Below, one piece after another: positions 6,100 to 26,366 of a stretch of DNA of 50,999 nucleotides. Source of the DNA: an uncultured Planctomycetaceae bacterium (GTDB taxonomy: Bacteria > Planctomycetota > Planctomycetia > Planctomycetales > Planctomycetaceae); assembly GCA_937901285.1 (NCBI GenBank), contig CALCHI010000240.1, forward strand, positions 1 through 50,999, read 5' to 3'. Both the position numbers and the translations under genes were made by a program. Under the pieces are notes generated by a model that saw only the letters and a list, made by a program, of their open reading frames with translations, did no database searches and was not told where the DNA came from. Position 1 is the stretch's first letter; each line of letters opens with the position of its first letter.

Positions 6100-6714
6100 C
6101 TAGTCGGCTGTCGAGGTTGTCTGTGGCGTCGCCAGCCAGATGGTCCGCTGGACGAATCCCTCTGGCAAGTCCACCGGAGAGGTGATCAAGACGGTGGTGT
6201 TCTCCAGTTGCTCGAGCACTTCGCGGATCAACGTGATCCCCGCGTCATCGATCTCGGCCAACGGTTCGTCCAGCAGCAACAGCCTCGGCGCGATCGCCAG
6301 CGCCCGTGCCAGTGCGACCCGGCGGCGTTCTCCACCCGAGAGACCCTCGACCTGGCGTTCGGCCAGCTGCGAGATCCCCAGTCGCTCGAGCCATTCGCCG
6401 GCGATCCGACGCCGCGTGGAACGGTTGATCTGTCGGGCGGCCAGTCCGTACTCGATGTTGCCCAGCACGTCGCCGCGAAACAGCCAGGGATGCTGGTGCA
6501 CCAGGGTGATGTCACCCGACGCACAGTTGGAGGTGACCATTCCGGGAGGGACCGGTTCGAGCCTGGCCAGGACTCTCAGCAGGGTGGTCTTGCCCGTTCC
6601 GTTGCCGCCACAAATGCCCACACGTTCGCCGGCAGCGATCTCCAGGTCGTTGCCGGCCAGGATCGGGAGGTTGGCTCGACGGACGATCAGCTGGTTTGTC
6701 GAGACGATCGTCAT
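6100..6714 (-). CDS. tupC: ABC transporter ATP-binding protein, TupC-like (tungstate/oxyanion)
   Basis: Walker A GGNGTGKTT, Q-loop VHQHP, ABC signature LSGGERRR, Walker B LLLLDEP. ATGA overlap (6711-6714) with the permease gene. Short at 204 aa. Confidence 0.75.
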   Translation of the reverse strand: MTIVSTNQLIVRRANLPILAGNDLEIAAGERVGICGGNGTGKTTLLRVLARLEPVPPGMVTSNCASGDITLVHQHPWLFRGDVLGNIEYGLAARQINRSTRRRIAGEWLERLGISQLAERQVEGLSGGERRRVALARALAIAPRLLLLDEPLAEIDDAGITLIREVLEQLENTTVLITSPVDLPEGFVQRTIWLATPQTTSTAD

Positions 6715-7412
6715 GCGTCTCTCCGGTCTTCTTTTCCCAGCATGGCCACCAGCAGTGTCATCCCGGTTGCCAGCAGCAGCAGCAGGCCGCCCATCGCCAG
6801 CCCGACAGCGAACTCACCCCTGCCGGTTTCGAGTGCCGTGGCGGTCGACAGCGTGCGGGTTCGGTCCTTGATGTTGCCGCCGACCATCATCGCGATGCCC
6901 AGTTCGGTCGAGCAGCGGGCGAAAGCGGTCAGGATGGCCAGGATCAACCCCGTGCGGGCCTCGTTGAGATAGGTCAGCAGGCGACGGACTGGTCCGGCAC
7001 CCAGTGTCCGGGCGGTTTCCGGGATCCGGTGATCGAGTGTGGCGAGGGCTCCGTGAGCCAGGGCGACGACGATGGGCAGTGCCAGCAATGTCTCTCCGAT
7101 GACAATTGCCGAGGGGGTGTAGAGCAGGTCGAGCGGTCCCAGCGGACCACGCCGCGCCAGCAGGCCGTAGCACAGCAGGCCCAGGAAGACTGTCGGGACA
7201 CCCAGGGCCGCCCGGAACATCACCAGCAGCAGACGGTGACCAAAAAATCGGCGTCGGGCCAGGCACGTGGCAATCGGCAGCCCGATCAGGATGGCCAGGA
7301 CGACGGCGGACAGAGATATGCTCAGCGTGCGGAGCATGGCATCGATGATCTGCTGATCGCCGCTGGCGATCAGCCGGACGGCTTCTTGCAGACCGTCGAC
7401 CAGGAAGTCCAT
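6711..7412 (-). CDS. tupB: ABC transporter permease, TupB-like
   Basis: 233 aa polytopic permease. GGNIKDRTRTLSTATALETGRGEF segment is typical of TupB-type permeases. 1-nt overlap with the binding-protein gene. Confidence 0.8.
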   Translation of the reverse strand: MDFLVDGLQEAVRLIASGDQQIIDAMLRTLSISLSAVVLAILIGLPIATCLARRRFFGHRLLLVMFRAALGVPTVFLGLLCYGLLARRGPLGPLDLLYTPSAIVIGETLLALPIVVALAHGALATLDHRIPETARTLGAGPVRRLLTYLNEARTGLILAILTAFARCSTELGIAMMVGGNIKDRTRTLSTATALETGRGEFAVGLAMGGLLLLLATGMTLLVAMLGKEDRRDA

Positions 7413-8263
7413 CAGGGCGTGTCACGCGGGTGTGGGTAGAACAGCGGTTCGCCCTCGATCCGAAACGACCCGATCTTGTTCTGTACCTGGTCCGAAATCA
7501 GGTAGTCGGCCAGTCGGATCGCCATCGACACGTTGATCCGCTCGTGTTTTTGCGGATTCACCACCAGCACTCCGTAGGGGTTGTGCAACGCGGGGTCATC
7601 CTTCACCAGCGGAACCAGCGTGATCTTGTTCTTGAACTTCAGATAGGTGCCGCGGTCGCACAGCACGTGGGCCGCCATTTCGTTGGCGGTCATCAGCGTG
7701 TGCCCCATGCCGCGGCCGGTTTCAACATATCGGTCCCAGGTGGCCAGTCCCCCGGTATTTTGCCAGAGCTCGAGTTCCCGCTTGTGGGTTCCACTGTCGT
7801 CGCCTCGAGAAACGAACGGTGTGGCGGTGTCCCGGATTTCCTTGAACGCCGCCACGGCCTTTCGGTCCGAGATACCGACGGGGTCGGACGCGGGGCCGAG
7901 CAGTACGAACGAGTTGTACATCACGTCATCGCGGCGCATCGCATGTCCGGCCTTGAGGAAGTCGAGTTCACTCTTCCGGGCGTGGATCAGCAACACATCG
8001 ACGTCTCCCCCGGTCCCCAGGCTCAGGGCCTGGCCGGTCCCGACAGCGATCACGTCGACTCTCACGTTGTGAGCCGCCTCAAACTCCGGAAGCAGGTAGT
8101 CCATCAGCCCGGTGTCCGCCGTGCTGGTGCTTGTTGCCAGGCGGAGCACGCTGGACCCACCGGAGGCCGGGCCCGTTGTTGACCCGGCCTGTTCTTCGGA
8201 TCCGTCACTGCACGCTGACAACCCGAGCACGGCGGCTACGACGGCACCGAACACGAGTCGCAT
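7412..8263 (-). CDS. tupA: Periplasmic oxyanion (tungstate)-binding lipoprotein, TupA-like
   Basis: ORF 7412..8302. I prefer ATG at 8263 (MRLVFGAVVAAVLGLSAC lipobox). Anion-binding motifs LATSTSTADTGL and SRGDDSGTHKRE are typical of TupA-type binding proteins. Confidence 0.8.
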   Translation of the reverse strand: MRLVFGAVVAAVLGLSACSDGSEEQAGSTTGPASGGSSVLRLATSTSTADTGLMDYLLPEFEAAHNVRVDVIAVGTGQALSLGTGGDVDVLLIHARKSELDFLKAGHAMRRDDVMYNSFVLLGPASDPVGISDRKAVAAFKEIRDTATPFVSRGDDSGTHKRELELWQNTGGLATWDRYVETGRGMGHTLMTANEMAAHVLCDRGTYLKFKNKITLVPLVKDDPALHNPYGVLVVNPQKHERINVSMAIRLADYLISDQVQNKIGSFRIEGEPLFYPHPRDTP

Positions 8264-8334
8264 GGTGGAACTGATGAGGTGTCGGGACAACGGGGTGACC
8301 ACTTTGCTTCGGTGAGCGAGAGAAGATGAGCGGA

Positions 8335-11019
8335 TCAGCGAGGGCTGGCTCGAACCGGCGACTGCGTGCCGCCCAGGCGTCCTCCGTCCTGTTTCAGCGA
8401 TGTGCCGAGGTGATCAAACAACTCGTCTCCGGAAACGTGGCCATCGGCATCCTTGTCGGCCAAACCGCGGAAGCCGGTGGCGATGTGCCAGGCGAACAGG
8501 CCATGCCGTCTCTGTGGATCGACCAGCCCCTTTTGTCCATCACCGCAACTGGCGATCACCGTCGTGGTTTTGAGCCGTTTGCCGAGAGTTTCCAGCAGGG
8601 CGACGCCGTCGGGCTGCCGTTGCAGATCGCGACCGCTGCCGGCGTGTGTCACGTCGAGCAGCCAGATCTTTTCGGCTCCCCGGCTCGATTCGATCTGGTC
8701 GGCCAGCCAGTCCATCGACACACCGGTTTCGGCCATGTTCTCCCAGTCGAATCCACGAGGGGCCAGCCACAGCCGATCGTCGTCACCGCGGTAGACGTGG
8801 CCGGTGGTGTAGACGACCAACTCGGCACGGCCTCGCAATTCCCCCAGGAATCCGGTCACCTGCTTCTGGAGTTCGGCTCGGGGGGTGTCATTGAGCAGCT
8901 TCGCATGACTGCCGTCGGTGGGGACGCGGTAGAACCGCTCCAGGTGGTTGGCAACCAGTTTCAGGTCACCGCTGGCAAATGGCAGGGGGGTCAGCGACTT
9001 GTCCCGGTAGCGGCTGGTGCCGACCAACAGGGCCCAGCGATGGGGGTAAGCCCCTCGCTCGGCGGCCACCAGCAACGTTCGGCCGCCGTCGGGCTCGGCC
9101 GAAATCCACACGGTGTCGTCGGGTCTCAGGTCGCCCAGTTGCGACGGGTGGCTGTTGAGGAACACCGAGGCCTCCTTGTCAACCGACAGGTTGACGGTGC
9201 CGCCGGAGGACTTGACGGCCAGGCGACCAGGGGAGACATCTATCGAATTGATGGCACCGCGGATCATCGGTTGCCGGGCCTGGATGACGGTGACCGATGA
9301 GATGGTCCTGTCGTGATCGATGGCCACCAGCATGTTTTGCTCGATCGACTTCAGCGTCCAGGAGGCTCGTTCGGCGGCCGACGCCCCCCGTCCGGTCAGG
9401 GTGGCGTTGTCGGCCAGCGTCCACGACTGGTAGCCGGGGCTGCTGGATCCCTGTTGCAGTTGCAGGGTCAGTCGCCGCTTGGCCGCATCGATCCGGTTGA
9501 CCAGTCCCACGGTTTTCATCGTTCGCCGGATGTCGACCTGGGTGGCCAGCCGCGACCCGCTGCCACCAGAATCGAGGACGTGGACCGCTGTGATTTGGTC
9601 GCCGGGGGTAATATCGGCAACGTCGCCGGTTTTGCCGTTGAGTCTCATCCGAGTCCCGTCACCGATTCTCAACCCGATATCGTCGCGGTCGTCACCGGCC
9701 TGCGGGGAGAGAACCAGCCGTGAGGCGGGGACATCAACTCCACCGACCACGCCTTCGTGCGTCGTTGCTGGTGCCACGATCAACTCGACCACCCGCGACG
9801 GCTCCTCGGCGGTCCGTTTCAATTCGAGCCGATCGCCGGGCGAGAGGTCGGCCAGGGCCCCGTGTTCCTTGTCGTTACTGTTTCGCGTGATCACCACGTG
9901 CACGCCGTCATCCAGGCGAACGTCGCTGGAGATGCCGGTCGTCATGTTCCGGACCCGCAACCGGTGGCCGTCGTCGATGATCTCCTCAAGCACGACCACG
10001 TCGGCAACGGTGTCGCCGTCCCGAGGAGCCGGTGCCGGTCCGCCGCTGGGGAGGAAGACCATCAGCAGCGAGAGCAAGACCGACACGCAGGCGGCGGCAA
10101 TGGCCAGCGTCCGGCGTCGATTGGGAGGTTCGGCGGCCGTGGTGTCCCTGTCCGCCTCGGCCGCATCTCCGGAGCCGTCCTTGCGGATGATTTTCACGTC
10201 GATGTTGAGGTCCGAGAGGGCGTCTTCGGCCGATTCGTATCTCCGCGACTTGTCCTTTTCTGTCAGTTTCTGGATGACCTTTGCCAGGTCCTCGGGAACT
10301 CCCTCCAGGACTTCGCTGATCCGGGGCAGTCGACGGTCCGGTGCCGCGTGCCATTCGATCCACGGGTCTTCCCCGGTGACGTCACTCCGGAGGGCCCCCA
10401 GTCCCAGGGCGAGTTCTTCGAACGGCGGACCGCACATCAGCTCGTAGGCGGAAAACCCGAGCGAGTAGAGATCACTGCTGGCATCGACTTCGCCGAAGTC
10501 CTCCGACACGACCTCCGGTGCGATGTAACGGGTGGCCCCCTTGAGCAGCGTTCCGTCCTGGTCGCTGACCCGGCGGGAGAGACCGAAATCGCCGATTTTG
10601 ATTCGTCGGCGGGCGTCGATCATCATGTTCGACGGCTTGACGTCTCCGTGGACAATTCCGCGACTGTGCAGGTAGTGCAGGGCTCTCAGGCAATGAGCCA
10701 GGGTGGTCTTGAGAGCTCGCAGATCCATCTGTCTGCCGGCCAATCGCTCGGCCAGCGTGGCCTGCATCAGTTCCATCACCAGCCAACCCCGTTTGCGGTC
10801 GATGTCGTAGATCGTGACGACGTTGGGGTGCTGCAGCGATGCCAGCAGCTGGGCTTCCTGCCAGTAGCGGTCCAGTTGCAGGGTTCCGCCGAGGAACTCG
10901 TCACGGATCTGCTTGACGGCGACCTCGCGGCCCAATTCCCGGTCGCGGGCCCGGTAGACGGTCGTGTAGCGTCCGGTCCCGACGGTTTCGAGCTGTTCGT
11001 ATCGGGTTTCGCCGGCCAC
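8335..11019 (-). CDS. Transmembrane Hanks-type Ser/Thr protein kinase with periplasmic repeat region, caspase-like (peptidase C14) pseudo-protease domain and EF-hand loop
   Basis: 894 aa. Kinase motifs: VGTGRYTTVY, VAVK, HGDVKPSN (non-RD), DFG, APE. TM helix LAIAAACVSVLLSLLMVFL (about aa 304-323). Four ~80-aa repeats (aa 337-655). C14-like block: WALLVGTSRY ... VVYTTGH ... WLLDVTHAGSG ... IASCGDGQ ... GLFAWHIATGFRG. EF-hand loop DKDADGHVSGDE. Confidence 0.9.
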   Translation of the reverse strand: MAGETRYEQLETVGTGRYTTVYRARDRELGREVAVKQIRDEFLGGTLQLDRYWQEAQLLASLQHPNVVTIYDIDRKRGWLVMELMQATLAERLAGRQMDLRALKTTLAHCLRALHYLHSRGIVHGDVKPSNMMIDARRRIKIGDFGLSRRVSDQDGTLLKGATRYIAPEVVSEDFGEVDASSDLYSLGFSAYELMCGPPFEELALGLGALRSDVTGEDPWIEWHAAPDRRLPRISEVLEGVPEDLAKVIQKLTEKDKSRRYESAEDALSDLNIDVKIIRKDGSGDAAEADRDTTAAEPPNRRRTLAIAAACVSVLLSLLMVFLPSGGPAPAPRDGDTVADVVVLEEIIDDGHRLRVRNMTTGISSDVRLDDGVHVVITRNSNDKEHGALADLSPGDRLELKRTAEEPSRVVELIVAPATTHEGVVGGVDVPASRLVLSPQAGDDRDDIGLRIGDGTRMRLNGKTGDVADITPGDQITAVHVLDSGGSGSRLATQVDIRRTMKTVGLVNRIDAAKRRLTLQLQQGSSSPGYQSWTLADNATLTGRGASAAERASWTLKSIEQNMLVAIDHDRTISSVTVIQARQPMIRGAINSIDVSPGRLAVKSSGGTVNLSVDKEASVFLNSHPSQLGDLRPDDTVWISAEPDGGRTLLVAAERGAYPHRWALLVGTSRYRDKSLTPLPFASGDLKLVANHLERFYRVPTDGSHAKLLNDTPRAELQKQVTGFLGELRGRAELVVYTTGHVYRGDDDRLWLAPRGFDWENMAETGVSMDWLADQIESSRGAEKIWLLDVTHAGSGRDLQRQPDGVALLETLGKRLKTTTVIASCGDGQKGLVDPQRRHGLFAWHIATGFRGLADKDADGHVSGDELFDHLGTSLKQDGGRLGGTQSPVRASPR
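9055..10011 (-). repeat. Four tandem ~75-80-aa beta-rich coding repeats inside the kinase ectodomain
   Basis: Each unit begins with a hydrophobic x-I/V-D stretch and ends with a D-L/I-x-P-G/D-D turn. The units begin VVVLEEIIDDGHRLRV...LSPGDRLEL; VVGGVDVPASRLVL...ITPGDQITAV; VGLVNRIDAAKRRLTL...; IRGAINSIDVSPGRLAV...LRPDDTVWIS. Aligned by eye only. Confidence 0.5.
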
Positions 11020-11120
11020 CGCGTCGGTCCTCAGGGCAATCCTCCCGGATCGGGAGGGCGGTCCGATTATGTCCCCATCGGGGCGGTGGCGGAAGGGAAG
11101 GCGTTGGGATCAGGCCCGGT

Positions 11121-12017
11121 TCAGGGCCCCTTCAACGTTGCGATCGACTTCCGCAATTGCTTGTCCCGGCTCACGTCGCCGGTCAGGCCCGTTGTGCCGA
11201 GGTCTTCGGCGTTGAGCAGTTTCAACAACCGGTCATAAGCCTGTTGTTCGCCGGCTCGATCGGATCGGGCGGCCGACGTCAGTGCGTCACGGACCAGCAG
11301 TCGCCAGCCCGCCTCGGCCCGGTTCTTCTTGGGCTGGGAATCGTTGAGCATCTGCTTGAGATTCTGTCGTTCGGTTCGGCGGTCGTCGCTGGTCGCACGA
11401 TTGCCGGGGCCCTCGACCACCAGCAGCAGAACCGTGGAGGCCACGCTGGCCGCCAGCAGCAGGGAGAGCATCAACGAGTTGGAACGGCGGGTTTTCTGCT
11501 CCGACTGCCCGCCGGTGAGTTCCTCGTCCAGGCTCAACTCCGGAAGCTGCCCGTCTTCGCCCAGTTGCACCCGGGATTCGCCTTCGGCGTTGGTGACGAA
11601 CTTGGCCAGTTGTCTCTTGCGTCGTCGTCCCTTCCGGCCACGTCGTTTCTCCTTGCCCGACCGCTTGGCCGGTTCTTCGGTCTCCTCTCCGCCATTCCCG
11701 TTTTCGTCGTCGGTGGCCATGGCGAAGTGGAGGCTGGTGCGATCCCCCAGCACGATGTCGGCTTCTCCGGGCAGCCAGACCCACCGCTGGGGGGGGATCG
11801 GGCTGCCGTCGATGGAGACGGCGTCGGGTAACGGGGTGAAGATGGCGTAGCGGCCGTTGCGGAGAACGATGCTGGCGTGGTGATCCGCCAGGTTGGCGTC
11901 CTCGAGCACCACCTGGTTGCTCTCGGCGCGACCGATGTGCACCAGCTCGGTCTCGAGCTCGAACAACTGACCGCGTGCCGGACCGCGGGTGATGGTGATG
12001 GTTGCCGGTTCACTCAT
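11121..12017 (-). CDS. FHA domain-containing membrane protein
   Basis: 298 aa. N-terminal FHA fold (LVHIGRAESNQVVLEDANLADHHASIVLRNGRYAI ... GDRTSLHF). Poly-basic tract KEKRRGRKGRRRKRQ. One TM helix (LMLSLLLAASVASTVLLLVV). About 90-aa C-terminal tail. Confidence 0.8.
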   Translation of the reverse strand: MSEPATITITRGPARGQLFELETELVHIGRAESNQVVLEDANLADHHASIVLRNGRYAIFTPLPDAVSIDGSPIPPQRWVWLPGEADIVLGDRTSLHFAMATDDENGNGGEETEEPAKRSGKEKRRGRKGRRRKRQLAKFVTNAEGESRVQLGEDGQLPELSLDEELTGGQSEQKTRRSNSLMLSLLLAASVASTVLLLVVEGPGNRATSDDRRTERQNLKQMLNDSQPKKNRAEAGWRLLVRDALTSAARSDRAGEQQAYDRLLKLLNAEDLGTTGLTGDVSRDKQLRKSIATLKGP

Positions 12018-12036: not shown

Positions 12037-12972
12037 CTACTCCATCAGGTCGACATAGATGAAACTGAGCACGAAGGGGCCGAGGATGATCAGCACGGTG
12101 GCAGCCATCACCAGCACGCTGGGCAGCAGCATCTTCACCCCGGCTTCACCGGCGATGGTCTCGGCCCGCTGCGTCCGCTTGATTCGCAGCACGTCGGCCT
12201 GGGTTCGGAACAGCCTCGCCAGAGGAGTGCCCAGGGTTTCGCCCTGGATGATCGATCCGATGATGCTGGTCACTTCGGGGTCGTCCAGCCGGTCTCGCAT
12301 CGCCTCGAGTGCCCCGATACGGCTCTTGCCCATGTTGATCTCCGAGAGCACACGGCCGAATTCCACTCCAACCGGATGATCACGAAACTCCGCCACGGAT
12401 TCCTCGAGCGATTGCAGAAACGTCGCTCCCGCTTCCATCAAAAGCGTCAGCAGGTCCAGCAGGAACGGCAACCGCTGCTTGATGCGGAACAGTCTCAGGG
12501 CGGCCTTCTGTGCCAGTCGACGGCGGAGTAGCCAGACCGTCGCCGGCCCGGCGATCAGGCCGCCGAGCAGCCCCGGGGGGCCGGCCAGGTCGAGACCGAT
12601 GTAGATGTAGGCGGGCGTCAGCATCGCCGCCAGGATCTGTATCGTGCCGAGATACTCCTGGGGGGTCCAGAAACGGGGCAGGCCGGCAGCATGGATGTCT
12701 CGCAGAATGCCGGGAAGCGAATCGCGGAAAGCGCGACGGTTGATCTGCCCCAGGCCCACCACCAGCGGCTGCAGGAAACGGTAGACCAGGCTCCGACGCC
12801 GCAGCTCGGCAATCCGCAGCTGGTCGTGACGCCACGTGTCGTCACCGTCCGGGTCATCGGCGACGGCACTCTGCACGGCGCGGGCCAGCACAAACAGCCC
12901 TATTGCCAGCATCAGGCAGGCGATCACCTGCAACAGCGGGAAGGGCGAGGATGTGGATTGAGCGAGAAACAC
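12037..12972 (-). CDS. tadC: Type II secretion system F family protein, TadC-like
   Basis: 311 aa polytopic. T2SS-F-type C-terminal region ...GETLGTPLARLFRTQADVLRIKRTQRAETIAGEAGVKMLLPSVL... Sits 7 nt after tadB. Confidence 0.8.
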   Translation of the reverse strand: MFLAQSTSSPFPLLQVIACLMLAIGLFVLARAVQSAVADDPDGDDTWRHDQLRIAELRRRSLVYRFLQPLVVGLGQINRRAFRDSLPGILRDIHAAGLPRFWTPQEYLGTIQILAAMLTPAYIYIGLDLAGPPGLLGGLIAGPATVWLLRRRLAQKAALRLFRIKQRLPFLLDLLTLLMEAGATFLQSLEESVAEFRDHPVGVEFGRVLSEINMGKSRIGALEAMRDRLDDPEVTSIIGSIIQGETLGTPLARLFRTQADVLRIKRTQRAETIAGEAGVKMLLPSVLVMAATVLIILGPFVLSFIYVDLME

Positions 12973-12979
12973 GGGAGGA

Positions 12980-13825
12980 TCAGATCTCGGGATTGAGGAT
13001 AGCGCGGGCCCAGAAGTAGGCCATGAGGTTCAGGATGAAAGCCAGGCAGAGGATCATCTGGCCGGGGACCTCGGTGAACAGCATCCGGGTGTGAATCGGG
13101 TCGATGAAGTAGTTCATCAACAGGATCACCGGCGGGGCCAGGGCCATGTACAGTGACGATGTGCGGGCCTGGGCGGTTTCGGATCGGACCTTTCGCTCCA
13201 GCCGCTGCAGTTCGCGGACACTGGTGGCGATGCGTTCGACTGTCTCGTTGAGCCGTCCGCCACTCTGGCGGCTGGCCTCCAGCGCCGCGGCGAACAACGC
13301 GAAGTTCTCGCTCTGCAACCGTTCCTTGGCCTCCTTGAGGCACTGTTCGAGGTCCTTGCCGAGCTGGTACTCGCCGACGATCTGCAGGAATTCCTGGCTG
13401 ATCGGCTTGGGACTCTGCCGGGCGAGGATGTCCAGCGCCTGGGCGAGCGAGAGTCCGGCCTTGATGGCATTGGAGAGCGAGACCATGGCGTCAGCCAACT
13501 GGTCCTCGATCAACAGGCGACGTTTCTCGGCCAGTTGCCTGAGTACGTACCATGGCAGGCTGACCAACAACACCGCGGCGGTCACCGCAAATACCAGGGA
13601 GCCGGCGACGATCAGCAGCGAGGCCGCGACGGCCGCGACCAGGATCGACCAGGTCACCAGGTACTTCCTCAGACGGTCGGTCCGCAGTCTCAACCGACGA
13701 AGCTTGTCCTTCAGGTCCTCCTCGACGAAGTCGATCGACTGGGAGTAGGTCGAGCGACCGGCGATGGCCCCGACGGTGACGGCGGCGGCGACCATGCCGC
13801 TGCCGATGATGGCCAGCAAGTCCAT
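12980..13825 (-). CDS. tadB: Type II secretion system F family protein, TadB-like
   Basis: 281 aa. T2SS-F pattern LADAMVSLSNAIKAGLSLAQAL ... RELQRLERKVRSETAQARTSSLYMALAPPV. Sits 12 nt after the ATPase gene. Confidence 0.8.
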   Translation of the reverse strand: MDLLAIIGSGMVAAAVTVGAIAGRSTYSQSIDFVEEDLKDKLRRLRLRTDRLRKYLVTWSILVAAVAASLLIVAGSLVFAVTAAVLLVSLPWYVLRQLAEKRRLLIEDQLADAMVSLSNAIKAGLSLAQALDILARQSPKPISQEFLQIVGEYQLGKDLEQCLKEAKERLQSENFALFAAALEASRQSGGRLNETVERIATSVRELQRLERKVRSETAQARTSSLYMALAPPVILLMNYFIDPIHTRMLFTEVPGQMILCLAFILNLMAYFWARAILNPEI

Positions 13826-13837
13826 CGGCGGAGTCTC

Positions 13838-15736
13838 CTAGGCCTGGTCACCGTAGAGGGATTCGAGTTTCAGCAGGTCGCTTTCGACCAGTCGGTCGAT
13901 GAAGCTGGGCATGTAACCGGTCGGAACCAGCCCCGTCTCGCTGCGGGTGCTGAAGATATCGGTCGTCGCCACACATTGTCGCTCGATGTCGTAGCCGGTG
14001 ACCTCCGAGACCTGCGTCACGCCGCGGCGGCCGCCGGGCAATCGGCTGATCTGAACGATGATGTCGATGGCCGAGGCGACCTGTCGCTGGATCGAGATCA
14101 CTGGCAGATCGACGGCCATCAGCACCAGCACCTCGAGACGTTTCAGAACATCTTCGGTGTTGTTGGCGTGGATGGTGGTCATCGAGCCGTCGTGGCCGGT
14201 GTTCATCGCCTGGAGCATGTCGAGTGACTCGGGGCCGCGGCACTCGCCGACGATGATCCGGTCGGGCCGCATCCTCAATGCGTTCTTGACCAGGTCGCGG
14301 ATCGAGTACTCACCGGCGCCCTCGACGTTGGGTGGCCGGGCTTCGAGCGTCACCACGTGTTCCTGGTGCAACTGAAGCTCGCTGGTGTCCTCGATCGTGA
14401 TGATCCGATCCTTGTGCGGGACGAAGCTCGAGAGCACGTTCAGCAACGTGGTCTTGCCGGTGCCGGTCCCGCCGCTGACCAGGACGTTGCGTCGGTCGAT
14501 CACGCAGGCCCGCAGGAACTGGGCCGCGGCGGTGGTGATCGAGTCGAGCTCGATCAGATCGTCCATGGTGAAGCGATAGGCGGGGAACTTGCGGATTGTC
14601 AGGCAGGGGCCGCGGGTGGCCAGCGGGGGGATGATGGCGTTGACCCGCGACCCGTCCGGCAGCCGGGCGTCGACCAGCGGTTGGCTCTTGTCGATCCGAC
14701 GTCCGACCTGTGCCACGATCCGTTCAATGATCGACTCGGTGACCTTGTCCGAGATGAACCGGCGTCCGGAAAGCTCGACCACGCCGTCACGCTCGACGTA
14801 AATCTGGTCGCTCTTGACCACCATGATCTCGGTGATCGTCGGAGCCCGCAGCAGGTCCTGCAGGGGGCCGAAGCCGAAGACGGTGTCCTTGAGATCCTTC
14901 TTCAGCGTTCGCAGGATCAGGTACCGCTTCAGTTCCTGGTGCAGGTGTGGCCGCACACGGGGGAACACGTCGTTCATCCGCGACTCGACCCGGTTGATCC
15001 GTTCGCTGAGATCGCGGCAGCCCTCCAACTCCAGTTGCTCGCGAACGAACCCGACCAGGTGTTCAAGTTCGGTCTCCCGTTCGGGGACCAGCGTCGCCGG
15101 GACGTCGAATTCGTTGGCACCCATTGCCGTGACCGTGTCCCCCATCGGAACCGTGTCGTTCCCACTCTCGAGAATCAATTGGTTGATCATCAGGTCCTGC
15201 AGCAACAGCGACACCACCTCTTCGAGCAACGGGAGGTTCTCGTCGCCGAAAAGATTCAGTTCACGGCAGACATCTTCGATGTTCTCCTCGAGCATCAGGA
15301 TGCTCTCCGTGCCGCCCAACTGGCTGCTCTCCAGTTCGAACAGGTCGAAGCGTTCCAGCAACTGCCGGTGCACTCGGAGTTCGAGGCTGGCCATGATCGA
15401 GCGGAGGTGCGATTCGAGCTGGCTGCGGCTGATCGGGCTGGCCTGCTCGGACTCGAAAGTCAGCGTGAACGGCCAGATGCGGACGGTGTCGCCTGGCGAG
15501 AACTCGCAGCTCTGCCCGCCGAGCACCTCGGTCTCGCCGACGACGCAGCTGTTGATACCAAGGTTTTCGAGGGTCAACAGTCCGTTGTCACGTCGGATGA
15601 CGGCCTGCTGCTTGCCGACCAGCGGGCTCTGCAGCACCACGGTGTTGCCCGTGTCACGGCCGACCCGGATCACCGGGTCGTCGGTTTCGACCAACGACCG
15701 GCGGCTGTCGTGGACCTTGTTGAACCAGACTTTCAT
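13838..15736 (-). CDS. cpaF: CpaF/TadA-family pilus assembly ATPase with N-terminal FHA domain
   Basis: 632 aa. The first ~95 aa have an FHA fold (VIRVGRDTGNTVVLQSPLVGKQQAVIRRDNGLLTLENLGINSCVVG...GDTVRIWPFTLTF). The C-terminal part is a secretion ATPase (T2SS-E type) with Walker A VSGGTGTGKTTLLNVL, IITIEDTSEL, IIVGECRGPE and TGHDGSMTTIHAN. Confidence 0.9.
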   Translation of the reverse strand: MKVWFNKVHDSRRSLVETDDPVIRVGRDTGNTVVLQSPLVGKQQAVIRRDNGLLTLENLGINSCVVGETEVLGGQSCEFSPGDTVRIWPFTLTFESEQASPISRSQLESHLRSIMASLELRVHRQLLERFDLFELESSQLGGTESILMLEENIEDVCRELNLFGDENLPLLEEVVSLLLQDLMINQLILESGNDTVPMGDTVTAMGANEFDVPATLVPERETELEHLVGFVREQLELEGCRDLSERINRVESRMNDVFPRVRPHLHQELKRYLILRTLKKDLKDTVFGFGPLQDLLRAPTITEIMVVKSDQIYVERDGVVELSGRRFISDKVTESIIERIVAQVGRRIDKSQPLVDARLPDGSRVNAIIPPLATRGPCLTIRKFPAYRFTMDDLIELDSITTAAAQFLRACVIDRRNVLVSGGTGTGKTTLLNVLSSFVPHKDRIITIEDTSELQLHQEHVVTLEARPPNVEGAGEYSIRDLVKNALRMRPDRIIVGECRGPESLDMLQAMNTGHDGSMTTIHANNTEDVLKRLEVLVLMAVDLPVISIQRQVASAIDIIVQISRLPGGRRGVTQVSEVTGYDIERQCVATTDIFSTRSETGLVPTGYMPSFIDRLVESDLLKLESLYGDQA

Positions 15737-15784: not shown

Positions 15785-16519
15785 CTAGGGCTTGGTTTTG
15801 TCCCGGCGATGGAGCAGCACCTGGACACCCTGGAAGTTGTTGACTGCCAGGATCCCGGCCAGTGTTTCGGCCTGGGGTTCGAGTTTGCCACCGGGATTTT
15901 CGACCTTCACGGCGACGGCGATCACGTTCTCGGCACCCGAGGCCAGGCCGGCCGCCTGGCGGACGTCGCGTCGGCCCTTGCGATTGCCCAGGGCCAGGAT
16001 CCGGAAGGGGCCGATGATCTTTCCTCCCCCGTCGGTTGGTTGGCTGCGGCTTGCGCCTTCGCCGAATTCCGGGATGCGGAAACTGACCTGGTCACCCGGA
16101 TCGACATGCTGTGGGTTGAACGTCCTGGAATCGACCGGCAACCACATCACTCGCTCGTTTTCGGCGATCAGTTCGTTGATGTCCTTGATGGCCGGGGTGG
16201 TCAGATCCCGGTGCATCACCAGTTCGGCTTCACCCGAAACGGCCAGGTCGCGAGCGGCTTTCTGGCCGATCACCAGGTCCTTCTGGTCCCAGAGAACAGC
16301 AACCTGTGACAACTGGGACTCGTGGCTCTTGGGCATCGAGATCGGCACGAGGTCTTCTGACTGGATCACGTCCCCCCGCTTGACGTCGGCCGGTTGAGAC
16401 ACGCCGACGAATCTGACGAGCTCGACCCGGCTGGCTTCCCGTTCGAGATACAGCCAGTTGCAGACGAAGCCGACGACGCCCAGCGCCACGGCGATCATGA
16501 TGCCCTGTGCACCCTTCAT
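15785..16519 (-). CDS. cpaB: CpaB/RcpC-like Flp pilus assembly protein
   Basis: 244 aa. N-terminal TM anchor (IMIAVALGVVGFVCNWLY), then a SAF-like segment (ADVKRGDVIQSEDLVPISMP) and a beta-rich C-terminal domain. Position matches tad loci. ATGA overlap with the upstream gene. Confidence 0.65.
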   Translation of the reverse strand: MKGAQGIMIAVALGVVGFVCNWLYLEREASRVELVRFVGVSQPADVKRGDVIQSEDLVPISMPKSHESQLSQVAVLWDQKDLVIGQKAARDLAVSGEAELVMHRDLTTPAIKDINELIAENERVMWLPVDSRTFNPQHVDPGDQVSFRIPEFGEGASRSQPTDGGGKIIGPFRILALGNRKGRRDVRQAAGLASGAENVIAVAVKVENPGGKLEPQAETLAGILAVNNFQGVQVLLHRRDKTKP

Positions 16520-17496
16520 GTTGACTCCCGCTCGCCCGGTGACACCGGGCTCGTTTCAATTGTCCCCGGGCGGACCGGGGTGAAGACGTTCAGCATACCA
16601 TGCCATCTGCCCGAGTTGTCATGTCGCAACGAGACGACCACGGTCCGGCCGGAGGGGTGTTGCCAGCGGGCGGTCCAGCCCTCGCGGTGCCGGGACGGCG
16701 GAGATGTCATTGTCCAGCCGTCGTCGTGCAGTTCGCGTTCGAAATGTTCCCACCAGCCATCCGGCCCCGGTGATCCGGTGAAGACCACCAGTCGCTCGGG
16801 GTCGCCGTCGCCGACGGCCAGCAGCCTGCGGCAGTCGGCCGGCAGCTCGACCGGTTCCGCCGCCACGTCACCGGCCGCGGCAAATGTCCAGGTCACCCAT
16901 TCGTCCCGGGGCGTGCGGGTGGCCAGTCCCCAGCCAACAACCCGCCGTTGGCCCAGCAGTTGGCGGACCGCCACGACCATCGGCAGCGGACCCTCGAGTC
17001 GATGCAGCGAGGTGGCGGCCTGTGACGGGCCGGGGCCCGGATTCGATTCACGACCGGCCAGGACTTTCAGCAGTTGCTGCTCAGCCTCGTCGGCGTCCGT
17101 CTCGGGCCACCCCGCCGTTTCGGCCGTGGCGCGAGTGGAACTCTCGAGCGCCCGCCAGGCCACCGCGCGATCACCGACCAGTCGCCGGCGATGGATCGTC
17201 GTTGCCAGTTCCCCAAGTTGAAGGTCATCGGGCTCGGTCCAGGCCGTGCCCGCTCCGGTGACGCCGTCGGCATTCGGGGTCGATTCGAGTCCCGGCTCGT
17301 TCCACCAGGAGGTCAACTGGCGTCCCAGCGCCAGCCCGACAACCAGCAGCATGCCGACCGCCAGCAGGTCGGTGGCACGCCGGCGGTACCTCCTGGCCAA
17401 CTCGCCGATTCCACCGGTCGCGGCGGATTCCGAAGACGCCGACAGGCCGTCGGCCGCCGGGGCGTCGTGATCGGGATGGTTGGTCTGGTCGGACAC
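16516..17496 (-). CDS. Hypothetical single-pass membrane protein (Trp-rich periplasmic domain), Tad-operon orphan
   Basis: 326 aa. GTG start. TM helix LLAVGMLLVVGLALG. No recognisable motif. Translationally coupled (ATGA 16516-16519) to cpaB. Confidence 0.6.
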   Translation of the reverse strand: MSDQTNHPDHDAPAADGLSASSESAATGGIGELARRYRRRATDLLAVGMLLVVGLALGRQLTSWWNEPGLESTPNADGVTGAGTAWTEPDDLQLGELATTIHRRRLVGDRAVAWRALESSTRATAETAGWPETDADEAEQQLLKVLAGRESNPGPGPSQAATSLHRLEGPLPMVVAVRQLLGQRRVVGWGLATRTPRDEWVTWTFAAAGDVAAEPVELPADCRRLLAVGDGDPERLVVFTGSPGPDGWWEHFERELHDDGWTMTSPPSRHREGWTARWQHPSGRTVVVSLRHDNSGRWHGMLNVFTPVRPGTIETSPVSPGEREST

Positions 17497-17511
17497 GGCG
17501 GATGCGAGGGG

Positions 17512-18513
17512 CTAGTTCAGCAGGGTTGATTCGAAAGATTCCAACTGCTGGATCAGGGGAATGTAGGCGGCGTCGGATTGTCCGTTCATCCGGGCCCGCT
17601 CGGCCAACTCGCGATACATTCTCAGGAAATCCCGCGTCAACGCGCCGGGGATGCCGGCCTGGTTGAGGTTTCCTCTTGGTCGTGCACGGCCCTGGATCTG
17701 TTCGACCAGCCGGTCGGTGAACCTCGAGAGGTCCGCGCGGTCACTGGTTCGGGCATTGCGCGGAGGACGGGGGTAATAGTCGCGGTTGGCCAATTCGCCG
17801 TCGCGATCAAAAAGGTCCATCCCGCGACGGTTCAGGCCAACACGTAATGCGGTGGCCAGTTGACGAAAACGGGCGGTGTGAACCGCCGTCACGTTCTGCC
17901 AGCGTCCGGCCAGGTCGGGATAGAGACGCAGCGAGCGGCGGGAATCATTCGACGACAGCCCCATCTGCCAGAACTGCCAGCAATTGTCGAGGACGGGAAA
18001 GTCCACCTCGTGCCGGTAGCCTTTTGGCGGCAATTGTCCCAGGACGGGGAAGCCCCGTTCGACAGAGGCCTGCCCGGTGATCATTCCCCGGCGGACGTCC
18101 AGCAGGTCCTGGTCGACCCGCAATCCGCGGCCGGATCGTGGGTCGATCAGCATCGGGCCGCGGGCGACCGTGTGCTGATCGTAGAGGGCCAGTTGGATTG
18201 TTGGCATCGAGATGCACGGCACGTGGGATCGATCGACGCTCATCCGGGCGGGTGCCGGGAACCCGGGCGGATTGGGCATGTCCTGCGCGTCTGTACGAGG
18301 GTTGGCCCGCCAGATCGATCTCCACGCGGCCTCGCGGGCATGGATCTGGGTGCGGACCTTGAAGGTGGCGGCCCAGCCGATGAGGATCATCAGTCCCATG
18401 ACGAACAACACCACCGGCAGGCTGAGCACCAGTTCGAGTGGCGCCAGGCCGCGACGGCCGGACCGCTTGCCGGGGACAGCCCGGTCGCGCGTCGTTGTCC
18501 GATAGGCCTGCAT
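17512..18513 (-). CDS. TadE-like pseudopilin-family protein (large)
   Basis: 333 aa. N-terminus GRRGLAPLELVLSLPVVLFVMGLMIL matches the TadE-type hydrophobic leader (G-x-x-x-x-E followed by a hydrophobic helix). Confidence 0.6.
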   Translation of the reverse strand: MQAYRTTTRDRAVPGKRSGRRGLAPLELVLSLPVVLFVMGLMILIGWAATFKVRTQIHAREAAWRSIWRANPRTDAQDMPNPPGFPAPARMSVDRSHVPCISMPTIQLALYDQHTVARGPMLIDPRSGRGLRVDQDLLDVRRGMITGQASVERGFPVLGQLPPKGYRHEVDFPVLDNCWQFWQMGLSSNDSRRSLRLYPDLAGRWQNVTAVHTARFRQLATALRVGLNRRGMDLFDRDGELANRDYYPRPPRNARTSDRADLSRFTDRLVEQIQGRARPRGNLNQAGIPGALTRDFLRMYRELAERARMNGQSDAAYIPLIQQLESFESTLLN

Positions 18514-18523
18514 GCGGGGGATC

Positions 18524-20062
18524 TCAGTGACTGACCAAATTGTCGAGTGTTTCGCTGGTGATTCTCGCGAACGGGCCGCTGCGCAGCGTTCCGGCCCGGG
18601 GGTCGAGTCCCGAGGGTGAACGAGCCAGGATCTGCTGCAACTCCGGCAGCGAGGCGGGCATGATCCGCGTGGTCCAGTTCTGGCTCATCAGGTCCCATCG
18701 CTGCGGCCAGTTTTCGCGGTATGGGATCGGACGCCATCCGGTGATCTCGCGAGTCTCGGGATCACGGATCGGCACCCAGCGGACCCAGGATCCATTGACC
18801 CGGACAAATCGGGGTTCGGGCAGGTAGACCTGCAGTTGGGCGAACGACTGCGCGTCCGAAAAATCTGAGAGGGGGTTCTTGAACAGCCCTGGACCCATCT
18901 CTTCAATATGCCGGCGATAGACGACGGCCAGCAGGTGGTAGTCACGATTGAGGTGCATGTTCACCTGCCGCCATCCCCCCGATTCCTGCATCTGTTTCAT
19001 CCGGCCCGGATGCGTTCCGTTGTTCATTCGGCGAATCTGGAAGGGGAGATTGTTTAGCGGGTATTCCCGGATGAGCAGGCGGTCGAGTTGTCCGCGTGTG
19101 GCGATCCGCCACAGGTCGCCGAAGCGGGACATGCGGGCATCGCGGTCGAACAGTTCGAGCTTCTGGTTGTTCCAGAGTTCGAGGTAATGATTGGCGAGAT
19201 CACTACGCTGCTTGACGGCGTCCTCGAAGTACTCCTGGCCGTGTCCGGCCGCTCCGAAGTCCGATCCGGTCGGCGAAGGATCGATGGCCGGCACGGTTCT
19301 CAGCAGAGGATGGGCCTCGGAGGCTTCGCCGATGGCCTGGGTGTTGGACCGGAACAGCACGCAGGCCGGCACATCGCCGGGCTGAAGGCTGCGGCTGACC
19401 AGGTTGGGATTCGACGGATCGTGACGTGCGGGATTGGTTGGCCGGGCGTGTCGTCGAACCGTTTCCCGTGCCGCGGAGACCGCCAGGTGGGGAACGGTTT
19501 CGACCAGCGTCCGCTGGTACTCGGGAATCAACTCGTACTCGAGTACGGACTCGAATATCGGCAGGAAATGGGCCGCTGCCGCGGCGTGCTCGTCACCGAA
19601 TGCTGCGACCGCTCGTTGTTCGAAGGGGATTCGCTGGACGACCGCTTGGCCGGCAGGGGGAAACTTGGCGAAGGTGGCCTGCAGCAGGTCGCCGCCGGCC
19701 AGGCCCCAGGCCTGCAGGATCTTCGGCACCTGGGCCTCGGCATTCCGCTGCTGGCCCTCGCGGAGGTAGGCGGTGATCGCGAAGACCTCGCACAGCAGGT
19801 GGTTGGTGTGGGCGAGTCCGTTGAGTCCACGGGCCAGCATCACCCCGCCGGTGACGGCGGCCGAGTCGGCGGCATTCTGCATCTTGAGCTTGTCGTCGGC
19901 GTGACGGCCGACGTTGGTGATCATCACCAGCAGCATGGTGAACACCAGCAGCACCAGCAGGGTCACGATGCTGATCGTGCCACGTTGGTCACCGTGCAGG
20001 CGACCGAGTCGAACCCGAAGCCGCGAGCGGATCCGGTGGCTGGGCTGGTTATCGGTTGGCAT
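18524..20062 (-). CDS. TadG-like (Tad N-terminal domain) pilus assembly protein
   Basis: ORF 18524..20188. I prefer ATG at 20062 (MPTDNQPSH...), which reduces the overlap with the upstream gene to 14 nt. RGTISIVTLLVLLVFTMLLVMITNVGRHADDKLKMQNAADSAAVTGGVMLARG matches the TadG/Tad_N pattern. Confidence 0.7.
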   Translation of the reverse strand: MPTDNQPSHRIRSRLRVRLGRLHGDQRGTISIVTLLVLLVFTMLLVMITNVGRHADDKLKMQNAADSAAVTGGVMLARGLNGLAHTNHLLCEVFAITAYLREGQQRNAEAQVPKILQAWGLAGGDLLQATFAKFPPAGQAVVQRIPFEQRAVAAFGDEHAAAAAHFLPIFESVLEYELIPEYQRTLVETVPHLAVSAARETVRRHARPTNPARHDPSNPNLVSRSLQPGDVPACVLFRSNTQAIGEASEAHPLLRTVPAIDPSPTGSDFGAAGHGQEYFEDAVKQRSDLANHYLELWNNQKLELFDRDARMSRFGDLWRIATRGQLDRLLIREYPLNNLPFQIRRMNNGTHPGRMKQMQESGGWRQVNMHLNRDYHLLAVVYRRHIEEMGPGLFKNPLSDFSDAQSFAQLQVYLPEPRFVRVNGSWVRWVPIRDPETREITGWRPIPYRENWPQRWDLMSQNWTTRIMPASLPELQQILARSPSGLDPRAGTLRSGPFARITSETLDNLVSH

Positions 20063-21149
20063 TGAAGGCGTGCACGTAGGGGACCAGGGACTTGACGCCG
20101 TCGTTGGTGACGGTGGCCCGGGCCCAGATGGTGGTGGTGTAAACGCGGTTGTTGTATTTCGGGTCGTGGGGTGACGAGTCACCGTCACGGGCTTCTCCGC
20201 TTTGCGGATCGATCTGGCGTCGGGGGCCGGCCCACTTGTTGATCCGGTGGCTGACCAAATCGGGTGGGCCGCCGGGACGGACGAGAAACTTGGCCAGGAA
20301 CCGGCCCGGACCGGGCAACAGGGCGAGGTTGTGCCGCACGGTCACGGTGATCGGGTCCCGCCAACCGATTTCGTTGGGCAGGTTCGTATGGGTCGGATGG
20401 TTGAGCGGGTTGTGGGTGGGGCCGATGTGGGAGTTGAGGTTCTGAAACCGGATCCAGATCTCGGTGTTCCAGTAGCTGTAGCAGAACTTGTTGTAGAGCC
20501 GGGCGTCGGTGGAGGGGGTCACTTCGGGGCCGGCGAACTGTTGCCAGGCTGTCTGTATGGCCAGGAAGTGACTGCGGGCGTCGGACTGGATGTCGAGTCC
20601 AAGATGACGTGAGGGCGAGATGGTGGCACAGGCGGTCACCGCCGTGCGGTGCGGGTACTCGAGCTTGAGCATGTTCTCGGCGGAGTTGACGTCGGCATTT
20701 TCGGTGAGACCGTCAATCCGAGTGCCACCGATGAAGTTGTAGCCACGACTTTTTCCGGGCCGCAGTTCGGGGGCGCGGATCATGTTCTGGAAGTGAACCT
20801 CCTCGCCGAACGGGTCGGTCGAATCGTCGCCTTCGACCTCGGTGACATGCTGGGGCACCCAGGCCGCGATGCTACGGGCAGCGCCGTAGGCGGCGTAGTT
20901 GATCACCACCTGGGCGATCATCAACTGGCTGACCTGGACGACGAACATCACGAGCATCACGAAGATCGGCAGCGTCAGCACGAACGAGAGACTCTGTACT
21001 CCGCCACGCTGGCAACGGTGCAACTGGACCAGCCGCCGCAGGTCGAAGCGGCAGCCGCTGGCCCGGATCACCACGATCAATGCCAGCACCGCCGCGGCCA
21101 GCGCGAACAGAGCGGGTCGGCAGTCGTCGAGGATCACTCGCAGTGCCAT
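20049..21149 (-). CDS. TadE-like pseudopilin-family protein (large)
   Basis: 366 aa. The TadE-type segment QRGGVQSLSFVLTLPIFVMLVMFVV starts near aa 48. An alternative TTG start at 21023 would put it at the N-terminus, as in typical TadE. Confidence 0.6.
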   Translation of the reverse strand: MALRVILDDCRPALFALAAAVLALIVVIRASGCRFDLRRLVQLHRCQRGGVQSLSFVLTLPIFVMLVMFVVQVSQLMIAQVVINYAAYGAARSIAAWVPQHVTEVEGDDSTDPFGEEVHFQNMIRAPELRPGKSRGYNFIGGTRIDGLTENADVNSAENMLKLEYPHRTAVTACATISPSRHLGLDIQSDARSHFLAIQTAWQQFAGPEVTPSTDARLYNKFCYSYWNTEIWIRFQNLNSHIGPTHNPLNHPTHTNLPNEIGWRDPITVTVRHNLALLPGPGRFLAKFLVRPGGPPDLVSHRINKWAGPRRQIDPQSGEARDGDSSPHDPKYNNRVYTTTIWARATVTNDGVKSLVPYVHAFNANR

Positions 21150-21192
21150 GTCTTCTGGTCGATCGAAGTGGAACGGATCGGGTGAGGGTGGT

Positions 21193-21756: not shown

Positions 21757-21814
21757 GGACGAAGCACTCTCCACGACGGCCCGCCCGACCCGTCGGCCCA
21801 CCGAACGGGACGAT

Positions 21815-24715: not shown

Positions 24716-24853
24716 CTCCGCGATTGGATTGCTGGCCGGGTGTGAGGGGCCGGAGGATCTCCAGCACCCTTGGCGAGACATGATGAACGATCCCCGGCGG
24801 TTTGTCACCGCCTGCGGCTGCCGTCACGGTGTCTCGGTGGGCCGGGACCACCG

Positions 24854-26344: not shown

Positions 26345-26366
26345 GGGGAAATCCGGGGATGAAGAG

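Follow-up and report, generated by a model that had tools for sequence, protein, structure and literature searches.

The stretch of DNA analysed here, referred to below as the window, comprises the first 50,999 nucleotides of contig CALCHI010000240.1 (GenBank assembly GCA_937901285.1) from an uncultured member of the Planctomycetaceae, a marine planctomycete. It carries a Tad pilus gene cluster, and at the end of this cluster lies the gene for a receptor-type Ser/Thr kinase of 894 amino acids (aa) with which we are concerned in this report. A preliminary description, made from the sequence alone, had assigned to this protein an N-terminal kinase domain, a transmembrane (TM) helix, four repeats, a caspase-like domain and an EF-hand loop. 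Pfam searches, a hydropathy scan, an AlphaFold2 model and a profile built from related proteins agree with this layout. We verified the positions of the motifs VAVK (aa 33-36), HGD (aa 124-126; positions 10642-10650), DFG (aa 144-146), APE (aa 167-169), VVYTTGH (aa 735-741), LLDVTHAGSG (aa 787-796) and of the EF-hand-type loop (Table 1). The segment RRR precedes the TM helix on its cytoplasmic side and an acidic, Pro-rich stretch follows it; the kinase should therefore be cytoplasmic, with the remainder of the protein extracytoplasmic. Two open reading frames (ORFs) on the opposite strand, 8326-9300 (+; 324 aa) and 9757-11238 (+; 493 aa), overlap the kinase gene; they are shadow ORFs, as expected at a GC content of 64-65%.

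The relationship of the C-terminal domain to peptidase family C14 is not evident from a Pfam scan of the protein itself. A Pfam scan of the full query (E<=1) returned the kinase domain and a sub-threshold match to CusF only, with no match to Peptidase_C14 (PF00656), to the EF-hand families or to DUF5666, and a phmmer search of the C-terminal 244 aa against PDB sequences was negative as well, so that a family profile was required. The NCBIfam model NF047832 (caspase, EACC1-associated type) covers aa 662-877 (E 6e-22), at 78 bits against a cut-off of 140. PF00656 is matched by 15 of the 18 aligned relatives, with a best E value of 1e-24; the full-length relatives reach 28-44 bits (cut-off 21.4), and positions 2-224 of the 233 in the model are covered. 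Through these intermediate proteins, C14 homology is secure. When searched against the PDB, the family profile made from 18 sequences found the MALT1 paracaspase (E 1e-9) as well as metacaspases 4, 1 and 9 and TbMCA2. The AlphaFold2 model of the domain attained a predicted local distance difference test score (pLDDT) of 94.4 and a predicted template modelling score (pTM) of 0.92, and its best Foldseek matches were MALT1, caspase-9, caspase-11 and metacaspases (E 1e-9 to 1e-7; TM score 0.62-0.67). At the level of the model, a caspase/haemoglobinase fold (clan CD), with its central sheet of six strands between helices, is confirmed.

Both the family profile and the family alignment place H741 and T791 in the columns of the catalytic His and Cys, as had been proposed. 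The segments VVYTTGH and LLDVTH align with 'YYAGHGY' and 'FLLDMCRK' of MALT1, which hold its catalytic His and Cys, respectively; H741 is thus the equivalent of the catalytic His and T791 that of the catalytic Cys. Among 162 family domains, the column of T791 contains Cys in 75, Ser in 28, Thr in 22 and other residues in 37. The residue preceding T791 is Val, hence there is no neighbouring Cys. The IASCGDG motif, considered earlier as a possible source of a genuine catalytic Cys, is present, but its Cys is residue 825 and not 824; it occupies a conserved column of its own, and some homologues have Cys at both columns, so that C825 was rejected as the nucleophile. The codon of T791 is ACA, which differs in all three bases from the Cys codons (TGY). 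Thr is found at this position in 10 of 10 orthologues, nine genome loci among them, and in four database fragments, and two independent metagenome assemblies (16x and 15x coverage) are identical to the window over positions 8400-8900. Because the orthologous loci and the independent assemblies agree, a sequencing or assembly error at this codon is ruled out. We regard the domain as a C14 homologue that is not a cysteine peptidase.

What appears to be retained is the pocket. D685 aligns with the Asp of the 'LVDVY' segment of MALT1 and D789 with the Asp two residues before its catalytic Cys; in MALT1, both are part of the Arg-binding S1 pocket. Since D685 and D789 are conserved, a pocket for a basic residue is plausibly intact in the domain studied here. 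The two acidic residues and the EF-hand-type loop are conserved in the family regardless of the state of the dyad. The model also includes strands after the one that carries the Cys position (169-173 and 239-241 in model numbering), and the terminal QTP is conserved; 'SCxxGQ' and the terminal 'QTP' resemble motifs of the metacaspase p10 region. Among the orthologues, the caspase-like domain (75-93% identity) is better conserved than the barrels that precede it (55-90%) and is therefore under selection for something.

Orthologues of the kinase in public data are mostly fragmentary. A word-indexed homologue search yielded only four close fragments (P0001-P0004), and the gene at one orthologous locus (L001) is split by a scaffolding gap of Ns (about 9890-10000). 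The name 'exonuclease VII small subunit' carried by fragment P0003 is not credible, as this fragment aligns over its full length with the kinase ectodomain. When 1.84 billion representatives of clusters formed at 50% identity were searched exhaustively with the profile, 18,861 of them matched at E<=1e-3, and the stricter limit of E<=1e-30 left 130. The same full-length layout recurs in at least 68 of the 150 best-matching representatives and is therefore not the unusual architecture that it had been taken for. The kinase comes first, from aa 1 to about 275; near aa 300 it is followed, in 67 of the 68, by a TM helix, then by a colinear spacer of some 340 aa and by the caspase-like domain at aa ~650-890. 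There are two length classes, one of about 880-905 aa, to which the query belongs, and one of about 1,100-1,150 aa. Roughly two thirds of the full-length members possess an additional C-terminal extension of about 230 aa (P0010, P0020, P0052, P0061, P0072 and others) that the clade of the query lacks; weak matches to TPR were found in the one relative with any Pfam match in this part.

Within this family the catalytic Cys has been lost again and again. The 68 full-length proteins have the dyad His/Cys in 25 cases, His-Thr in nine, His-Ser in five, His-Ala in four and His-Val in three; many further combinations occur once each, and some members lack the His. Fitch parsimony on a neighbour-joining tree placed Cys at the root and counted about 18 changes, with the non-Cys states scattered over the tree, a count that is only approximate since the tree is star-like. 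Members with Val, Ala or Gly in the nucleophile column retain the His no less often than those with Ser or Thr, which argues against the latter two as replacement nucleophiles. Thr at 791 is no special case: substitution of the Cys by Ser, Thr, Val, Ala, Gly and other residues has recurred throughout the family. Since the Cys was lost some 18 times and yet fold, acidic residues and loop were retained, the simplest reading is that the core role of the family would need fold and pocket, not hydrolysis; where the dyad is intact, proteolysis may come in as an additional activity. The family is large, it belongs to the Planctomycetota, and loss of the Cys is commonplace within it. In Planctomycetes, no more than 64% of the homologues have a conserved dyad (PMC3501461), and pseudo-orthocaspases constitute 8.6% of bacterial orthocaspases (PMC6426788).

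The closest known counterparts of the domain are the pseudo-orthocaspases such as SyOC of Synechocystis (PMC6426788, PMC7889975), with which it shares a C14 caspase fold, a substituted dyad, a presumed repeated origin from active relatives and a presumed lack of proteolytic activity. Pseudo-orthocaspases were defined by Klemencic et al. (2019; PMC6426788) as p20 homologues without His and/or Cys, and the His-Thr pair found here fits this part of the definition. The forms described so far mostly have Tyr-Ser, Tyr-Gly or Phe-Ser, whereas here the His is kept and the Cys replaced by Thr; moreover, the domain is predicted to be periplasmic and sits at the C-terminus of a receptor kinase, behind a stalk of OB-folds. 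Orthocaspases lack a p10 domain, whereas the model includes C-terminal (p10-like) strands, so that 'ortho' versus 'meta' is not settled. The best profile and structural matches are MALT1 and the type I/II metacaspases (Yca1, AtMC4, AtMC9, TbMCA2), with H741 and T791 on the dyad of MALT1. Identity to these proteins is 13-18%, and, in contrast to them, our protein lacks the nucleophilic Cys, has an EF-hand-type loop between its last helices, and has no death, Ig or prodomains.

The second main result concerns the genomic setting of the kinase. The Tad cluster ends with its gene in 10 orthologous loci (nine genome loci from metagenome-assembled genomes of marine Planctomycetaceae/Planctomycetota and one metagenome scaffold), all with the same gene order, and in four distant subfamilies. 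The full-length orthologues (L002-L010) are 63-92% identical, and the related-locus search with alignment A1 reaches only orthologues of at least 61% identity. Beyond these, we sampled eight subfamilies (P0048, P0052, P0009, P0060, P0020, P0012, P0039 and the clade of the query). TadC, or TadB and TadC, together with the gene that lies between TadC and the kinase in the window (the partner gene; Table 1) are found directly upstream in P0048, P0052, P0009 and P0060. P0048 and P0052 are thus Tad-linked with the dyad intact; P0009 comes from a complete 7.3-Mb genome with a whole Tad cluster; and P0060 has the order TadB-TadC-partner-kinase without an adjacent CpaF. In P0020 the partner gene stands beside the kinase on a contig too short to tell more. 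Co-conservation of the partner beside the kinase was likewise seen in L011 (1267-2193), L014 (236-919), L016 (1093-2148) and L017 (8986-9912). Only the C-terminal half of the partner is conserved (a conserved motif, the TM helix and the helical tail); its N-terminal domain is FHA-like in the window, L011 and L017, Cys-rich and by eye zinc-ribbon-like in L016, and nothing recognisable in L014. TadB/TadC, partner and kinase thus form the conserved unit. A functional link between kinase and Tad pilus, as presumed in the preliminary description from adjacency, is well supported by synteny. That the protein responds to Ca2+, binds a ligand or controls the pilus is, on the other hand, pure inference.

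Table 1. Features of the kinase gene and of the adjoining Tad pilus cluster in the window.
Feature	Positions	Strand	Basis or remarks
Whole kinase gene, 894-aa receptor-type Ser/Thr kinase	8335-11019	-	ORF list; GTG start, stop codon 8335-8337
Cytoplasmic Hanks-type kinase domain (predicted location), aa 7-267	10219-11001	-	Pfam Pkinase, E 1e-46
Single transmembrane helix, aa ~303-325	10045-10113	-	Hydropathy scan; only hydrophobic segment
Four tandem OB-fold/CusF-like (DUF5666-type) beta-barrels (modelled), aa 336-655	9055-10014	-	AlphaFold2 model, Foldseek, Pfam matches of relatives
Barrel R1	9766-10014	-	
Barrel R2	9520-9765	-	
Barrel R3	9277-9519	-	
Barrel R4	9055-9276	-	
Caspase-fold (peptidase C14-like) putative pseudo-protease domain, aa 656-894	8338-9054	-	NF047832, AlphaFold2, Foldseek, family profile
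D685, conserved acidic residue	8965-8967	-	Aligned to Asp of MALT1 'LVDVY'; conserved in 126/150 family domains
H741, catalytic-His position, retained	8797-8799	-	Aligned to His of MALT1 'YYAGHGY'; His in 122/162 family domains
D789, second conserved acidic residue	8653-8655	-	Aligned to Asp two residues before MALT1 Cys; 152/159 family domains
T791 (ACA), catalytic-Cys position	8647-8649	-	Aligned to Cys of MALT1 'FLLDMCRK'
C825 in 'ASCGxGQ' motif, conserved non-catalytic Cys	8545-8547	-	Cys in 116/162; column separate from 791
EF-hand-type 12-residue loop DKDADGHVSGDE, aa 855-866, between helices aa 841-853 and 864-881	8422-8457	-	Pattern match, model
Upstream partner gene: FHA-like domain, basic (Lys/Arg-rich) linker, TM helix ~aa 180-204, ~95-aa helical C-terminal tail	11121-12017	-	Pfam Yop-YscD_cpl/FHA
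TadC	12037-12972	-	Pfam T2SSF
TadB	12980-13825	-	Pfam T2SSF
FHA-CpaF/TadA ATPase	13838-15736	-	Pfam FHA+T2SSE
Rest of Tad cluster: SAF/CpaB-like, two unknown proteins, TadG-like, TadE-like	15785-21801	-	Pfam
Prepilin peptidase A24	21193-21801	-	Pfam

The four repeats between the TM helix and the caspase-like domain are hardly recognizable as such at the level of the primary structure. A BLASTP self-comparison of the ectodomain gave no off-diagonal match, and pairwise local scores against shuffled sequences revealed weak similarity (z=4.6 for R2/R4, z=3.0 for R1/R2, nothing for R1/R3). The AlphaFold2 model of this region, computed from an alignment of 13 sequences (pLDDT 84, pTM 0.70), is all-beta and divides into four modules at aa ~337-416, 419-498, 501-579 and 586-654. 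Foldseek retrieved tandem OB-fold proteins from the PDB: cold-shock domains 7-9 of Unr (CSD789), the OB tandem of Mpa, HIN domains and EF-P. A single module matched CusF (3e6z; TM score 0.77, root-mean-square deviation 2.0 A, 86 columns). The query itself matches CusF_Ec of Pfam weakly and below threshold (E 0.096, 13 bits), and among the relatives DUF5666 is matched by P0010 with 27.8 bits against a cut-off of 27, with P0052 and P0048 just under it; weak CusF matches occur there too. On the strength of the model, we interpret the repeats as four tandem OB/CusF-like barrels of the small, five-stranded type, which would most simply form a periplasmic stalk.

The kinase domain possesses the complete set of catalytic residues (K36, E55, D126, N131, D144-F-G and A167-P-E) and has HGD in place of HRD, in agreement with its earlier designation as a cytoplasmic non-RD kinase. 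HGD is present in 68 of 68 full-length relatives, and Lys36, Glu55, Asn131, DFG and APE are kept in 64-68 of them. The whole family thus consists of intact non-RD kinases, and HGD is no local oddity. The best NCBIfam match of the kinase part is NF033483. In its overall plan the protein resembles the PASTA kinases PknB/Stk1: an N-terminal Hanks kinase is followed by a juxtamembrane linker, one TM helix and small repeated extracytoplasmic domains that serve as the sensor. It departs from them in that OB/CusF-like barrels and a caspase fold replace the PASTA domains, HGD replaces HRD, and NF033483 is matched with 182 bits against a cut-off of 450.

From these data we propose that the protein is a single-pass receptor Ser/Thr kinase that acts as a dedicated accessory of the Tad pilus in marine Planctomycetaceae and whose head binds but does not cleave, a proposal to which we give about an even chance. 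In this clade, the caspase-fold head would be a pseudo-protease with a binding function, and its partner is probably a stretch of peptide that contains a basic residue. Such a peptide might be contributed by the pilus machinery, by the envelope, or by the short periplasmic tail of the co-conserved membrane protein encoded upstream, and the loop would most simply be a structural Ca2+ site. Occupancy of the head, or tension on it, would then change the activity of the kinase, which may phosphorylate a component of the Tad platform, the partner protein or its own juxtamembrane region; phosphorylation might in this way tune the extension or retraction of the pilus driven by CpaF. The path from kinase to pilus is inferred.

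Such a relay would parallel the PpkA/Fha1 threonine-phosphorylation switch of type VI secretion, in which the FHA protein Fha1 reads a target phosphorylated by PpkA, a kinase of the membrane. In the pathway of PpkA, Fha1 and the phosphatase PppA, too, the gene cluster of an envelope nanomachine encodes FHA proteins along with a membrane-bound Hanks kinase that has a periplasmic domain. The periplasmic domain of PpkA is vWA-like and differs in type from the ectodomain discussed here; furthermore, the machine is a Tad pilus in our case, no PP2C was found in the window, and the FHA domains here lack the canonical Ser that binds phosphothreonine (pThr). Closer at hand are the FHA-bearing class III CpaF/TadA motors, a recognised group to which no kinase has been assigned (PMC12019362); the ATPase encoded in the Tad cluster of the window has exactly their FHA + T2SSE layout. 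In the Kil system of Myxococcus, the ATPase KilF is likewise fused to FHA and several FHA proteins are encoded in the cluster, and a type VI-style signalling cascade was proposed for this FHA-rich Tad-like system (PMC8460266). Neither of these two papers reports a linked kinase (the word does not occur in the Kil paper, and in the CpaF paper a kinase figures as an assay enzyme only), whereas the kinase is conserved in the cluster studied here. In the literature that we searched, there was no description of a kinase-caspase family in Planctomycetes, nor of a kinase linked to Tad/CpaF-FHA.

Several observations weigh against the proposed role as a pilus accessory with a binding head. We compared the FHA domains with a reference FHA core. 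In the FHA domain of CpaF from this clade, Gly-Arg and Asn are kept, and Gly stands at the position of the canonical pThr-binding Ser and Gln at that of the structural His; the Ser is present in the more distant CpaF orthologue of L017 (5100-6983). The FHA-like domain of the partner lacks the canonical Ser as well, and L011 and L017 do not share its Arg. In Pfam, this domain best matches the YscD-type FHA-like domain, an FHA fold that does not bind phosphorylated residues. With the pThr-binding Ser missing from the local FHA domains, a classical pThr-FHA relay looks doubtful. A Pfam scan of the 45 other ORFs in the window detected no PP2C phosphatase, and two of the sampled subfamilies (P0012 and P0039, both on short contigs) have no adjoining Tad genes. 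To these points we add the star-like tree behind the count of Cys losses, and the consideration that Thr or Ser could in principle act as nucleophile.

The proposal can be widened, more tentatively, to an undescribed module associated with Tad pili throughout the Planctomycetota. It would be composed of the TadB/TadC platform, a single-pass partner and a non-RD receptor kinase with the caspase-fold head on a periplasmic OB-fold stalk. The head, active or repeatedly 'killed' to become a pure binder, would dock on a basic peptide of the pilus machinery or envelope, and cytoplasmic Ser/Thr phosphorylation would in this way be coupled to the mechanics of the pilus or to its state of assembly. We think this wider version possible, but would expect it to fail rather than to hold.

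Information might also flow in the opposite direction. The kinase would then report the state of the pilus (surface contact, retraction load or pilin pool) to the cell, with stalk and head touching periplasmic parts of the Tad apparatus. The synteny with Tad genes speaks for this possibility just as it does for an accessory that controls the pilus, and the poor prospects of the local FHA domains for pThr binding weaken a direct relay from kinase to CpaF. L019 and L020 carry TadB, TadC, partner and kinase without an adjacent CpaF, and Tad pili are described as surface sensors (PMC6920026, PMC13170226). A scan of the ORFs in the window, however, revealed no downstream target or transcription factor encoded nearby, and in silico the two directions are indistinguishable. 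We consider the reverse flow unlikely.

The EF-hand-type loop invites a different interpretation, suggested in the preliminary description, in which the ectodomain is chiefly a Ca2+ sensor and seawater or periplasmic Ca2+ gates the kinase through this loop. DKDADGHVSGDEL fits an EF-hand pattern (PROSITE-type) and is its sole match in the ~102,000 aa of the six-frame translation of the window. The loop agrees with the EF-hand consensus at positions 1, 3, 5, 6, 8 and 12, and in the model it lies (residues 205-216 in model numbering) between helices 191-203 and 214-231, so that the 12-residue pattern of the preliminary description stands and acquires a helix-loop-helix context. The family profile also matches EF-hand proteins, if weakly (3akb E 0.016; calmodulins E~0.2; range 0.016-1). 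Metacaspases are Ca2+-dependent, and an EF-hand motif adjoining orthocaspase domains has been noted previously (PMC6426788). Yet the loop is single, not paired, and without a Pfam EF-hand match at E<=1. Nearly all relatives share D855, D/N857, D/N859, E866 and a hydrophobic side chain at 862, but Gly at loop position 6 occurs in only 41 of ~152, with Leu or Asn in many others. Of 154 related proteins, 64 conform to the strict pattern at the corresponding site, among them tandem caspase-like proteins that have no kinase and an intact His/Cys dyad. Being family-wide and equally present in such members, the loop is no adaptation of the dead form and better fits a constitutive structural metal site. 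Seawater Ca2+ is, in addition, nearly constant at about 10 mM and hence a poor signal. The loop is probably a structural metal site of this C14 branch, rather than evidence of Ca2+ sensing, and we judge a chiefly Ca2+-sensing ectodomain to be quite improbable.

Less probable still is that the head has remained a protease in which Thr791 (Ser in relatives) and H741 process a periplasmic substrate such as a pilin or the stalk of the protein itself. Of the 22 variants with Thr, 20 retain H741, as do 16 of the 28 with Ser; Ser and Thr together account for 50 of the 87 non-Cys states, and the Asp residues of the pocket are retained. The His is, however, kept equally well next to Val, Ala, Gly, Phe and Gln, which cannot be nucleophiles, and in other members it is itself replaced (by R, Q, N, P or Y). 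We know of no clan CD enzyme that uses a Ser or Thr nucleophile; an internal Thr nucleophile is very rare in proteases, and Cys-to-Ser mutants of caspases are standard dead controls. An anti-phage or conflict-system kinase-protease that stands beside the pilus genes by chance is the least credible alternative: the kinase strongly matches the PADLOC models mad6 and PD-T4-6, among caspase models the EACC1-associated type, known from conflict systems, fits best, and inactive caspase domains are common in such bacterial systems (PMC7159879), but the PADLOC matches reflect similarity in the generic kinase domain only (aa ~4-300), EACC1 is not encoded next to the kinase, the predicted location of the caspase-like domain is outside the cytoplasm, and the gene order with TadB, TadC and partner is kept across deep divergence, unlike that of mobile defence islands.

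With regard to the remainder of the window, two conserved proteins of the Tad cluster, of 326 and 333 aa (16516-17496 and 17512-18513, both -), have no Pfam match, and neither has a 472-aa protein encoded just beyond the cluster (22360-23778). We identified no secretin, Flp pilin or TadZ/CpaE among the ORFs scanned in the window. A three-gene uptake system of the ATP-binding-cassette type (PBP_like_2 binding protein, permease and ATPase; 6100-8302, -) follows the kinase gene, and its position is kept in eight of the 10 orthologous loci. On its other side, the Tad cluster is adjoined by an FTR gene (23801-24808, -) for formylmethanofuran-tetrahydromethanopterin formyltransferase, an enzyme of tetrahydromethanopterin (H4MPT)-linked C1 metabolism. 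The window also encodes three DUF1501 proteins (24854-29774, -; 35963-37501, +; 46874-48361, -), one of which forms a pair with a PSCyt1/PSCyt2/PSD1 protein of 1,135 aa that contains an insert resembling 3-keto-disaccharide hydrolase; gene sets of the PSCyt/PSD kind are a typical planctomycete feature. Further products are a DUF7133/HEAT/cytochrome c protein of 1,156 aa (31102-34572) and a 313-aa leucine-rich-repeat protein (45925-46866, +), the gene of which directly follows that of a thiamine-pyrophosphate enzyme (44267-45928) with overlapping stop and start codons.

Each component of the proposed system is of a known kind, namely a receptor Ser/Thr kinase, a pseudo-orthocaspase and an accessory of a type IV-filament machine, and no long-standing open question is touched by their combination. 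If the wider, Planctomycetota-wide module exists as envisaged, it would provide the first known case of a bacterial receptor kinase that receives its input outside the cytoplasm through a caspase fold. The family could reveal a regulator of the class III CpaF motors with FHA domains, for which no upstream signal is known. It also represents a natural experiment on pseudo-enzymes, with about 18 independent losses of the nucleophile on one scaffold, in which active and dead heads can be compared. Receptor Ser/Thr kinases are abundant in Planctomycetota, and almost none of them has a known input or output. The family described here offers both a defined genomic partner, the Tad platform with its co-conserved membrane protein, and a defined ectodomain, so that genetics in a cultivable relative could test it directly.

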